DNA from: an uncultured Verrucomicrobiota bacterium
GTDB lineage: Bacteria; Verrucomicrobiota; Verrucomicrobiia; Limisphaerales; UBA8199
Reading direction: 5' to 3'
DNA length: 64,000 nucleotides
NCBI GenBank assembly: GCA_903873945.1
Contig: CAIQQM010000246.1
Span: 8,940 to 72,939 of the forward strand
Shown here one piece after another: positions 5,543-27,270 of the stretch. The notes beneath the pieces are model-generated. The model saw only the letters and a list, made by a program, of their open reading frames with translations, had not been told where the DNA came from and made no database searches. The position numbers and the translations under genes are program-made. The first letter of the stretch is position 1; each line of letters begins with the position of its first letter.

Positions 5543-5572
5543 GTTAAACGGAAGAACCCGGCGCCTTCCTAC
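5543..5572 (-). promoter_or_regulatory. candidate ECF-type promoter (site A) upstream of the 1314-aa gene
   Basis: Minus-strand reading: CCTGTAGGA-AGGCGCCGGGTTCTTC-CGTTTAACCCCTTGGCACA. Hexamer GTAGGA (5572-5567), 16-nt spacer, CGTTTAAC (5550-5543). It lies about 33 nt upstream of the ATG at 5510. Same architecture as six other sites. Confidence 0.6.
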
Positions 5573-5629
5573 AGGTGGAGGAGGAAAACAGGGAATGAGT
5601 TGGTTGCCGACCGAGGTTTGCACAAGATT

Positions 5630-7930
5630 TCAGGGCATGCTGACGCCGACGCGGTAGGAGCGCTGGCCGTCCGTGGGCGAAGGGTCCGTGAGCGTGTCCA
5701 CACCGCCGCTGCCGGGGATTCCGGTTTGGGACGGGATATTCGTCCACCCCCCGGCAGTGAGGTCGGTCCGGTAATACAGGGTGTATTTGCGGTTGGCGGA
5801 GGACGGGTAAGACACGGCCAAGCCCGTGGAGTTCGAGACGCTCAAGATGTAGAAGCGAGACAGCGCGTTGGTCGGGTTCGTGTCGGCGATGTATTCCTGC
5901 AGATTGTTCATGCCGTCGCCGTCCGGATCGCACGCCGCACAAGATTGGCTGTTGGTTGCGGCGCCAGTGTCGCCGAAATACTGCGCGCGCCACCAGTTGG
6001 GGATGCCGTCGCCGACCGTGTCCACGGAGGTGGCCATCACGAGGTTCGTCTGGATGTTGGTGCTGCTGCCGGACGATCCGCTGACAATCAGGCTTACCGT
6101 ATTGGTGCCGGGAAAACTGTAAGTGTGAGTCAGGCTGGTTATGGTGACGCTGGTCGTCGCGCCATCGCCGAAACTCCAGTAGCGGTTGGTGATGGTGCCA
6201 GTCGAGTTGTCGGTGAATGTTACGACCAGCGGCGCCCCGCCGTTGGTTGACGCGGCGGTGAAGCTGGCGACCGGAGCGGCTGTCTGGCGGATGATCGTGA
6301 CGCTGTCGCTGACCGCAAAGCTCGATGAATTGGTGCCGCTGACGGTGATGACATTGGTTCCCACATTCAGCCAGAGGTTGGTGATCTGCCACGAGCTGGC
6401 CGCAGCCAGCGTGCCGTTGCTGCCAGTCAGCGCATTGGTCCAGGTCATGGTGCCAACCACATACGAGTTGTTCGTGCCTTTGATGGTGTAATTCGTCACC
6501 GTGTAGGCCACCGTGGCGTTGGCGTTGGTCGCGTCCACGACCGGAACAAGTTCAATCGTGCCTTGCGGGGTCAAATCCCGGCCGGACAGGCCGGAGTAGT
6601 TGGTGGCGTAGCGCCGGATTTTGAAGACGGTGCTGTCTGGCACGCTGCCCTGCGCTACGGGTCCGCTGGATCCGACCGGGTTGACGTATTTCCACACCGT
6701 TGAGCCATTGGTATCAACTTCAAAGAAAATGCCGCTTGGCCCGATGCAGATGAGTGTGTTGCTGTTCGGCAGACGCTGTGTGCCGGAGATGTTCTCGCCA
6801 TAGAAGCTCGGCGAAGGGTTGTAGGTCCAATAAAGATTCGTGGGGTCGTAGGTCGCCGTGATGTTAGTGGCGAGGGTATAGTTGGTGACGCTCGCGTTCG
6901 TATAAATGGGCGTGACGAACTCGTCAATGGTAGAATAGCCGCGCCCGCCGGCACCGTTGTTGAATACCAGGATGTGCCCGCCGCCGGGACAGTTGGTTGG
7001 AATCCACTGCGCGTCATGCTGGCCATAGAGCTTCTGGTTGCTGGCAGTTCCGCGCCGGTATGCCGCCGGATTGCCCCAGCGGTAGAGGAGATCCCCGCCC
7101 ATGCCGCTGTTCCCTCCGGTGTGGCCGGCCGCCTGCGCCGTGGTGGTGCTGTGGTCAATCACCCAGACTTCGTTGAAATTGTGGGCGCTGATGAGGATCT
7201 GGTCGTAGGTCGAGTTGTAGCGGACAGCGTTGCAATGAGTCCAGTCGCCATACGTCTCACGTTTGCCGTAGTTGATGTCAACCAGTTGCGGGTTGTTGGT
7301 GACGTTGCCGTAGTTCGCTTTGGTGGAGTCGTAGTCCTGGACCAGATGGTCCCAGAGGTGCCACTGCCAGACGATTGTTCCGTTCGTCGCCCCGCTTGGC
7401 TGCACCTCGATGATGCTGTCGGGCCATAGGCCTGAAGCTGTGACATTGGCCGGAGCGCACCCCGCGTTGGTGGCCTCGCTTTGGGTTTTGGTCTCCCAGG
7501 CGATGAAAAGGATGTTGCTGTTGGGAAGCCACTCGATGTCGTGGTGCGGTGAATGATTGGTGGTCGAGTAAGTGTAGCTCCACAAAACGGTTCCGTCCCA
7601 ATCAATTTCCTGGATGCCACCGCCCAAGCATCCGCCTCCGGCGTTGAAGGTGGAGTTGGCTATCTGTGCCGAGCGAAGGAGGCGGCCGTTCTCCATGAAA
7701 TAGGCCGACTGGCCCGGCAAATAAGAAGCATTCGTCCAAGTGTGGATGAGCTGGCCGGCGTTGTTGATAAGATAGGTGTTTTTTGAGCTGGCCGGCGGGA
7801 AAAGCGTATAACCCGGCCAGGCACTCGAGCTGTTGGTGAACAGGCCAACGGTTTGGGCGGCCTGCACCAGACTGGTGAACGGGGCCAGCATCACCACCAG
7901 CGTAATGAAAACTTTCATTGATGGCTTCAT
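5630..7930 (-). CDS. 766-aa secreted ASST-like beta-propeller + PKD domain + Ca-binding-like linker + FYR-type tail
   Basis: Signal MKPSMKVFITLVVMLAPFTSLVQA. ASST-like strings: YLINNAGQLIHTWTN, HHDIEWLPNSNILFIAW, VWQWHLWDHLVQDYD, HCNAVRYNSTYDQILISAHNFNEVWVIDH, GDLLYRWGNPAAY. PKD-type FTDNSTGTITNRYWSFGDGATT. Linker VGDGIPNWWRAQYFG..CDPDGDGMNNLQEYIADTNPTN. Tail RSYRVGVSMP. Confidence 0.8.
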   Translation of the reverse strand: MKPSMKVFITLVVMLAPFTSLVQAAQTVGLFTNSSSAWPGYTLFPPASSKNTYLINNAGQLIHTWTNASYLPGQSAYFMENGRLLRSAQIANSTFNAGGGCLGGGIQEIDWDGTVLWSYTYSTTNHSPHHDIEWLPNSNILFIAWETKTQSEATNAGCAPANVTASGLWPDSIIEVQPSGATNGTIVWQWHLWDHLVQDYDSTKANYGNVTNNPQLVDINYGKRETYGDWTHCNAVRYNSTYDQILISAHNFNEVWVIDHSTTTAQAAGHTGGNSGMGGDLLYRWGNPAAYRRGTASNQKLYGQHDAQWIPTNCPGGGHILVFNNGAGGRGYSTIDEFVTPIYTNASVTNYTLATNITATYDPTNLYWTYNPSPSFYGENISGTQRLPNSNTLICIGPSGIFFEVDTNGSTVWKYVNPVGSSGPVAQGSVPDSTVFKIRRYATNYSGLSGRDLTPQGTIELVPVVDATNANATVAYTVTNYTIKGTNNSYVVGTMTWTNALTGSNGTLAAASSWQITNLWLNVGTNVITVSGTNSSSFAVSDSVTIIRQTAAPVASFTAASTNGGAPLVVTFTDNSTGTITNRYWSFGDGATTSVTITSLTHTYSFPGTNTVSLIVSGSSGSSTNIQTNLVMATSVDTVGDGIPNWWRAQYFGDTGAATNSQSCAACDPDGDGMNNLQEYIADTNPTNALSRFYILSVSNSTGLAVSYPSSANRKYTLYYRTDLTAGGWTNIPSQTGIPGSGGVDTLTDPSPTDGQRSYRVGVSMP

Positions 7931-7983
7931 GTGCGTTGTTTTGTTTGTTTTCTATGGCTATGTTGCCTCCCGGCTCGACGATA

Positions 7984-27153: not shown

Positions 27154-27165
27154 AATATCCAAGAG

Positions 27166-27195
27166 GTTAAACGGCAAGGCAGCCTTAATTTCTAC
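27166..27195 (-). promoter_or_regulatory. candidate ECF-type promoter (site F) upstream of the SUMF1-like remnant
   Basis: Minus-strand reading: CCTGTAGAA-ATTAAGGCTGCCTTGC-CGTTTAACCTCTTGGATAT. GTAGAA (27195-27190), 16-nt spacer, CGTTTAAC (27173-27166). Confidence 0.55.
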
Positions 27196-27239
27196 AGGCG
27201 AAGCGACCGAAATAAAGCTGCCGATTTCTTCGAATTCTT

Positions 27240-27270
27240 GTAGAAAGTGACAGGTTCTATGCGTTTTAAC
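27240..27270 (+). promoter_or_regulatory. candidate autoregulatory ECF-type promoter (site G) of sigma copy 2
   Basis: GTAGAA (27240-27245), the 16-nt spacer AGTGACAGGTTCTATG, then CGTTTTAAC (27262-27270). 17 nt separate it from the ATG at 27288. Confidence 0.6.

Follow-up and report, generated by a model that had tools for sequence, protein, structure and literature searches.

Why should a single bipartite sequence motif recur upstream of two σ factor genes and several oppositely oriented operons within 30 kb of a bacterial chromosome? This question is raised by a 64,000-nucleotide (nt) stretch of contig CAIQQM010000246.1 from an uncultured Verrucomicrobiota bacterium (hereafter the window), which harbors two genes for extracytoplasmic function (ECF) σ factors, each followed by a gene for a Ser/Thr kinase and surrounded by genes for exported proteins. 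The initial annotation had interpreted the motif as an ECF-type promoter through which the two σ factors drive themselves and the neighboring operons. Based on sequence comparisons, we consider it likely that the motif occurrences, seven in number, act as promoters for RNA polymerase holoenzymes formed with the two local ECF σ factors, which would thereby be autoregulated and would control the adjacent operons for exported proteins.

A search of both strands of the window for GT[AC]G[AG]A-N16-CGTT returned exactly seven matches, whereas 100 dinucleotide-preserving shuffles of the same DNA yielded 0.48 on average and never more than 3. Six of them (A, B, C, D, F and G) had been described initially, and we recovered their coordinates and sequences as reported; the seventh, site H, is new. 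The sites occupy five intergenic gaps, all located within 1-27.3 kb, and each faces the adjacent gene. Two pairs (C/D and F/G) are arranged back to back, each including a σ promoter. Between 27.3 and 64 kb, no match was found on either strand; this motif-free 37 kb encodes two large exported proteins followed by housekeeping genes (RecG, glutamate dehydrogenase, IleRS).

We then scored the window with a weight matrix of 46 columns, built from 21 sites that all stem from other genomes (loci L001-L013, 13 genomes). The seven sites reach 27.5-47.5 bits, the next best position of the window 2.2 bits. In 100 Markov shuffles, the maximum score averaged 7.1 bits, with an overall maximum of 15.5 bits. 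Neither the regular expression nor the matrix detected a copy of the motif inside a gene of the window. Its information content is concentrated in the two blocks, GT(A/C)G(A/G)A and CGTT. Promoters of ECF σ factors typically consist of a –35 block and a CGT-containing –10 block separated by 16-17 nt. All seven sites have this two-block structure, with a 16-nt spacer and CGT in the second block, and we count this match in geometry in favor of ECF-dependent promoter recognition. Within the intergenic gaps of the window, we found no σ70-like promoter above chance and no terminators that would explain the sites, and a search against Rfam gave no match in the window. The seven sites fall into two forms, a sigma-proximal and a target-type form:

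297-272, minus strand: site H, target-type promoter missed earlier; CTGTAGAAA-N-TTTCCGTTCATACTCTTGATG, with GTAGAAA-N15-CGTT followed by CATACTCTTG; 34.1 bits
5535..5572, minus strand: site A, target-type promoter; GTAGGA-N16-CGTTTAAC followed by CCCTTGGC; 28.1 bits
16249..16286, minus strand: site B, target-type promoter; GTCGGA-N16-CGTTTAAC followed by CCCTTGGA; 32.4 bits
19635..19672, minus strand: site C, target-type promoter; GTCGGA-N16-CGTTCGTC followed by CCCTTGGA; 28.3 bits
19703..19733, plus strand: site D, sigma-proximal (putatively autoregulatory) promoter; GTAGAAAG-N-TATGCGTTTTAAC, 17 nt before the σ-1 ATG; 44.0 bits
27158..27195, minus strand: site F, target-type promoter, back to back with G; GTAGAAA-N15-CGTTTAAC followed by CTCTTGGA; 27.5 bits
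27240..27270, plus strand: site G, sigma-proximal promoter; GTAGAAAG-N-TATGCGTTTTAAC, 17 nt before the σ-2 ATG; 47.5 bits

The –35 blocks of sites C and D are only 30 nt apart. Site A is located 58 nt past the stop codon of the upstream ASST gene and 36 nt ahead of the ATG at 5510, while the ATG at 261, 10 nt after the CGTT of site H, begins a signal peptide, after which comes the FGE motif LPGFALIPAGTFEMGD. The CCTGT upstream and the CC(C/T)TTGG downstream of the minus-strand sites, both noted initially, were confirmed and are also conserved in other genomes. A weaker variant proposed as site E (26948-26918) did not hold up: it scores –23.7 bits, or –10.5 bits with a 17-nt spacer, which is background in either case, and it was rejected as a promoter. 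The spacer had been described as unconserved, which is correct for most sites and incorrect for one pair: promoters B (16241-16296) and C (19627-19682) show 88% identity over 56 nt including the spacer and share the rare –35 variant GTCGGA, which is also carried by a close relative (L086-L089). This likeness points to recent common descent, presumably a recent promoter duplication within the lineage. Sites A and F match B at just 61-63%, that is, in the conserved blocks only.

If the motif directs autoregulation, it should accompany the σ gene in other organisms. The family is very large: more than 6500 clusters of homologous proteins have an E-value of 1e-10 or better. Identity is 79% or higher throughout the best 120 of these, and the few named sources among them are Verrucomicrobia. 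In all 13 verrucomicrobial genome loci (74-90% σ identity), the sequence GTAGAA-N16-(T)GCGTTT precedes the σ gene, ending about 22 nt before the ATG, with spacers that are unrelated between loci. The same arrangement is present in 14 of 15 non-redundant σ genes from metagenomes. Together with both genes of the window, 29 of 30 σ genes therefore carry the motif about 22 nt before their ATG, a degree of positional conservation among orthologs that is the classic footprint of a putatively autoregulated ECF promoter. Planctomycete homologs (44-52% identity) show related upstream forms: GTGGAA-N16-CGTT in L014, GTGGAG-N16-CGTT in L017 and L026, and GTAGAA-N16-CGTTT in L019. A homologous kinase gene directly follows the σ gene in 13/13 verrucomicrobial and 11/12 planctomycete loci (24/25 in total).

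The target form reads ccTGTAGAAA-N-TTTCCGTT-N4-CCCCTTGG, i.e. ccTGTAGAAA-N-TTTCCGTTcAtCCCCTTGGAyATG, and corresponds to sites A, B, C, F and H of the window. It is found on the opposite strand in eight of the 13 verrucomicrobial genome loci. Scanning metagenomes with the pattern GTAGAAA-N15-CGTT-N4-CCCTTGG yielded 40 loci, about 32 of them with the extended consensus; the remaining eight or so (L047, L055, L064, L066, L067, L072, L082, L084) lack it and were set aside as chance-like matches. Half of the loci (20/40) encode a σ homolog (67-84% identity), nearly always together with a kinase homolog. In most of these, the σ gene is divergent and lies within a few hundred nt of the motif, and many of the contigs are short. 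The genes following the target form belong to the families found in the window: most often LTXXQ/PEBP fusions, as downstream of site B, whose orthologs precede such genes in many loci, furthermore FGE-sulfatases, arylsulfotransferases, a giant protein combining arylsulfotransferase and Metallophos domains, and an FGE plus PEBP fusion. Downstream of the motif, homologous FGE genes are found in L048, L062, L065, L073 and L074, and the ASST-Metallophos fusion in L061/L076. In the close relative, whose σ factor is 95% identical, a single target-type promoter of the GTCGGA variant, with the same spacer as site B, precedes a string of genes for an arylsulfotransferase, a PEBP fusion and an FGE/arylsulfotransferase giant. 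The same gene families thus follow one promoter here, which indicates that the content of the regulon is conserved, while the number of predicted internal promoters varies. The initial annotation had suggested a comparison of orthologous loci; in it, the motif proved to be conserved both at the σ genes and before the same target families, and its reading of the motif as an ECF-type promoter serving autoregulation and nearby exported-protein operons is supported accordingly.

The σ factors and kinases presumed to act on these sites are encoded as follows:

19751..20401, plus strand: ECF σ-1, 216 amino acids (aa); Pfam Sigma70_r2, Sigma70_r4 and PF07638
20394..23141, plus strand: Ser/Thr kinase 1 (Pfam, hydropathy); its start codon overlaps the σ-1 stop codon (ATGGCTGA)
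27288..27929, plus strand: ECF σ-2, 213 aa, 83% identical to σ-1
27931..30693, plus strand: Ser/Thr kinase 2, paralog of kinase 1, with one membrane helix and TPR repeats

Both σ factors have the typical ECF architecture of about 200 aa with only regions 2 and 4 (Sigma70_r2, Sigma70_r4/r4_2, PF07638) and score 64-72 bits against TIGR02937, above its cut-off of 42.9. The best NCBIfam model is TIGR02984 (Planctomycetaceae-specific sigma-70 subfamily 1), with scores ranging from 161.5 bits for σ-1 to 170.6 bits; since both values remain below the curated cut-off of 183.75, the two proteins are relatives of this subfamily and not formal members. The two σ/kinase modules are tandem duplicates at a spacing of 7537 nt (19721-23141 and 27258-30693), with 75-85% nucleotide identity starting at the promoter –10 block. 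Because the region 4.2 recognition helix is identical and region 2.4 nearly so, either σ factor is expected to read all seven promoters. Region 2.2 reads GP(D/E)DVLQE in Verrucomicrobia (GPDDVLQE here) and D(A/P)DDVLQE in the planctomycete homologs, retaining its acidic residues without any Ser or Thr. The linker between regions 2 and 4 contains an invariant Ser/Thr-rich motif, ATSxS...TSPSxAA, in both verrucomicrobial and planctomycete homologs.

In both pairs, the kinase start overlaps or abuts the σ stop. Numbered from the open reading frame (ORF) start at 20307, kinase 1 consists of a kinase domain (112-412), a single membrane helix (445-463) and TPR repeats; in both kinases, the repeats lie beyond the membrane, opposite the kinase domain. 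Ahead of the kinase domain, both proteins share a conserved segment of about 80 residues (MADTERRRDPLEVLAAEYLERLRQGQ...; 20394-20640 and 27931-28180, plus strand). It can be aligned in the planctomycete homologs as well, matches no Pfam family, and could be a σ-docking part.

Taken together, these features suggest the following mechanism. The kinase, with its domain in the cytoplasm, one membrane helix and a periplasmic TPR region, would sense a periplasmic or extracellular cue via the TPR repeats and activate the σ factor by phosphorylation, by analogy to the ECF43 pairs EcfP/PknT and EcfK/PknS. The active σ factor would bind GT(A/C)G(A/G)A as –35 and TxTxCGTT as –10 region, 16 nt apart, and the holoenzyme would initiate at the seven promoters. 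Initiation at the sigma-proximal sites D and G would provide positive feedback on the σ-kinase operons, in which the σ gene appears translationally coupled to the kinase gene. Initiation at the target-type sites H, A, B, C and F would induce the operons for exported proteins, that is, FGE-domain proteins, arylsulfotransferases, the LTXXQ/PEBP fusion with its receiver, a MacAB-type exporter and phosphoesterases. At the usual ECF spacing, transcription should start about 9-13 nt after CGTT, here within the conserved TTGG or ATGG. Judged by this spacing, the CCCCTTGG block about 4 nt after CGTT should contain the start in the target form. The Ser/Thr-rich linker may be a phosphorylation site unlike that of ECF43, because region 2.2 is acidic and the linker offers Ser and Thr residues instead. 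The initial annotation had called the locus a candidate self-contained regulon. We do not adopt this term, because the DNA-recognition helices are the same and the family is very large, which makes cross-recognition between paralogs likely.

Several points weigh against this model. All support is comparative, so that transcription starts, σ dependence and phosphorylation are inferred. Downstream of the –10 region, ECF promoters do not usually carry a conserved block such as CCCCTTGG(A)yATG, which might bind a second factor or act as a signal for translation. With its acidic region 2.2, the σ factor may not be subject to the activation mechanism demonstrated for ECF43. The training sites of the matrix were selected by means of a regular expression that itself stems from the window, which makes the scoring partly circular for the core blocks; this does not apply to the flanking columns or to the fixed position ahead of the σ genes. 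Finally, the DNA covered comprises 64 kb of the host genome and about 10 kb around each relative, a scope that yields no genome-wide distribution.

Among the alternative explanations, the one that survives best assumes two promoter classes: D and G would be autoregulatory, and the target sites would need a second factor or a different paralogous σ factor that recognizes CCCCTTGGAyATGA. Indeed, the two forms differ consistently across genomes, with TATGCGTTT(T)AAC..cATGG in the sigma-proximal and CCT plus TTTCCGTTcAtCCCCTTGGAyATG in the target form, and conservation extends about 15 nt past the –10 region, which is not usual for ECF promoters; moreover, operon B encodes a single-domain receiver protein. 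However, both forms share identical –35 and –10 cores at identical spacing, the σ factors of the window have the same recognition helices, and the receiver lacks a DNA-binding domain according to Pfam. The extra block is located where the transcription start is expected, which is the simpler explanation, and we therefore regard two separate classes as rather unlikely.

It is very unlikely that the blocks represent a conventional transcription-factor site or a promoter of another σ class such as σ54. They are neither palindromes nor direct repeats, 29 of 30 ECF σ genes have them at a constant distance, and no conserved gene for a DNA-binding regulator is present in the neighborhood. The TTGGCAC in site A resembles a –24 element, but no site combines the GG-N10-GC spacing with a TTGC –12 element, and the σ54 reading of this sequence was rejected. 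A third alternative, under which the sites would be short dispersed repeats or leftovers of duplicated promoter DNA without a present regulatory role, is barely credible: the near-identity of B and C and the tandem duplication of the σ/kinase module would fit, but only B and C are alike beyond the blocks, the window contains neither terminal repeats nor copies inside genes, and the 29 sigma-proximal sites differ in their spacers yet keep blocks and ATG distance at 74-90% protein identity and even across phyla. A dispersed repeat had been named initially as an observation that would speak against the promoter; A and F, alike with B in the blocks only, do not behave as one.

Returning to the interpretation as ECF promoters, we examined the ATG at the end of the target form. 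An ATG is located 12-13 nt after CGTT in 21 of 29 non-redundant target-type promoters. Where an FGE or arylsulfotransferase gene follows, this ATG is the actual start of a signal peptide, and the mRNA would be near-leaderless. In front of PEBP-fusion and MacA genes, it opens short ORFs instead, which comprise 13 codons with a terminal KQQ in the window, in L002 and in L078, 24 codons in L009, L046 and L070, and 30 codons at site C (19541-19633, minus strand). The one belonging to site B is:

16206..16247, minus strand: possible 13-codon upstream ORF (MKIWSHFGSDKQQ*), starting at the conserved ATG 13 nt past the site B CGTT

No consensus RNA structure was detected in twelve PEBP-fusion 5′ leaders, for which zero pairs were predicted. 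These observations can be joined with those on the paralogs into one tentative reading, which we regard as possible at best. The conserved CCCCTTGGAyATG would place the AUG 0-4 nt from the predicted 5′ end and thereby couple the starts of transcription and translation, at the true start of exported FGE and arylsulfotransferase proteins and at an upstream ORF before PEBP-fusion and MacA genes. Many near-identical σ/kinase paralogs would share one promoter code, several kinases converging on one pool of promoters, and activation would occur via the TSPS of the linker and not via region 2.2.

The gene annotations made initially were confirmed by Pfam and NCBIfam. Four promoters (C, B, A and H) are found within a minus-strand string of genes that extends from 19.6 kb to the left edge, and operon F lies between the two σ/kinase pairs. 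The operons downstream of the target-type sites comprise the following features, all on the minus strand:

1..261, minus strand: 5′ part of an FGE/SUMF1-type gene running off the left edge (translation), presumed target of H
445..5510, minus strand: operon A, whole (Pfam; signal-peptide-like N-termini)
1566-5510, minus strand: FGE-sulfatase plus arylsulfotransferase protein, 1314 aa, operon A (Pfam)
445-1545, minus strand: SGL/arylesterase-like protein, operon A (Pfam)
5630..16183, minus strand: operon B, whole (Pfam, NCBIfam, signal peptides)
14021-16183, minus strand: LTXXQ/PEBP fusion, operon B; the start ATG at 16183 opens MKTKVILLTLALGAS, as in orthologs
13520-14002, minus strand: single-domain receiver, operon B (Pfam/NCBIfam)
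11989-13497, 7984-11952 and 5630-7930, minus strand: three arylsulfotransferase/PKD proteins, operon B (Pfam/NCBIfam)
16332..19521, minus strand: operon C, whole (Pfam)
18313-19521, minus strand: MacA-like membrane-fusion protein, operon C, from its ATG (Pfam)
17546-18307, minus strand: ABC ATPase, operon C (Pfam)
16332-17549, minus strand: MacB/FtsX permease, operon C (Pfam)
23528..27153, minus strand: operon F, whole (Pfam and translation of the remnant)
26995-27153, minus strand: FGE gene remnant, 52 aa, operon F (translation: signal peptide plus GLAVIPVGKFKCEMGD)
25229-26902 and 23528-25213, minus strand: two exported calcineurin-like/purple-acid-type phosphoesterases, operon F (Pfam)
23472-23459, minus strand: terminator-like hairpin after the second phosphoesterase gene (terminator scan)

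Every enzyme product examined starts with a signal-peptide-like segment. The LTXXQ/PEBP fusion is an exported protein that combines a Spy/CpxP-like LTXXQ region with a PEBP domain (YbhB/YbcL, Raf-kinase-inhibitor-like); it is the most conserved target across genomes, and in the window the receiver gene comes directly after it. The FGE remnant in operon F contains only the N-terminal part, the rest of the gene being missing, and the first phosphoesterase gene follows 93 nt further on. Since the terminator scan revealed no terminator-like site between the remnant and this gene, the phosphoesterase pair is more plausibly transcribed from F than from E. Two very large exported proteins adjoin the cluster (30695-37273, minus strand), neither preceded by the motif; one contains beta-helix/PMP repeats, EF-hands and a metallo-beta-lactamase fold, the other Lcl_C, PKD and Metallophos domains.

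Overall, the promoter signature is real and conserved, but the candidate regulon is conceptually ordinary: an ECF σ factor driving its own operon and its neighbors is textbook knowledge. Its value lies in a testable promoter and regulon for an uncharacterized, abundant σ/kinase family, as we found no experimentally defined promoter, targets or activation mechanism in the literature consulted for kinase-linked ECF σ factors outside ECF43. What the locus offers is a defined promoter consensus with its two variants, together with a compact candidate regulon and two σ/kinase pairs that are paralogs of each other. σ factors of this family abound in freshwater, peat and soil Verrucomicrobia (more than 6500 clusters), and their putative control over exported proteins of the FGE, arylsulfotransferase, PEBP and phosphoesterase types may for this reason bear on the processing of environmental organic esters.

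How does this system compare with those already known? SigW of Bacillus subtilis recognizes TGAAAC-N16-CGTA, and RpoE of Escherichia coli is another autoregulated ECF σ factor. The window resembles such systems in having –35 and –10 elements with a 16-nt unconserved spacer and a CGT-containing –10 region, positioned before the σ factor's own operon and a few envelope-related genes. It differs from them in the –35 sequence, which is GTAGAA or GTCGGA instead of GGAAC or GAAAC, in the conserved CCCCTTGG(A)yATG block after the –10 region of the target promoters, and in the partner, a Ser/Thr kinase instead of an anti-σ factor. Autoregulation of ECF σ factors and group-specific promoter motifs have been described (PMC7826278). 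A literature search revealed no description of a verrucomicrobial regulon of this kind, the predicted ECF group motifs (supplement of the ECF reclassification, ECF Hub) being outside its scope.

Kinase-linked ECF σ factors have been assigned to groups ECF43, ECF59-62, ECF217, ECF267 and ECF283 (PMC7826278), of which only ECF43 members have been characterized experimentally: EcfP-PknT of Vibrio parahaemolyticus and EcfK-PknS of Xanthomonas citri (PMC8999054, PMC13147305). As in ECF43, the σ genes of the window lie beside a gene for a membrane-bound Hanks-type kinase, without an anti-σ factor and with a local gene set, and this kinase synteny is kept in 24 of 25 homologous loci. ECF43 σ factors lack the acidic DAED of region 2.2 and instead carry an uncharged motif with a phospho-acceptor Thr (PMC8999054, PMC13147305). 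This signature is absent from the window σ factors, which keep the acidic residues and are therefore not ECF43-like, as judged from their sequence. They further differ from ECF43 in the Ser/Thr-rich linker ATSxS...TSPS, the TPR-bearing kinase, the exported-enzyme targets and the phylum of the host.

For the kinase-linked groups of Planctomycetes, ECF59, ECF61, ECF62 and ECF217 (PMC7826278, citing Jogler et al. 2012; PMC8999054, table), no experimentally defined promoter or regulon was found in the literature consulted. Compared by description only, they share with the window σ factors the occurrence in bacteria of the Planctomycetes-Verrucomicrobia-Chlamydiae group and the σ-kinase gene pair without an anti-σ factor. 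Further links to planctomycetes are the best match to TIGR02984 and the planctomycete homologs (44-54% identity), which keep their kinase neighbor.

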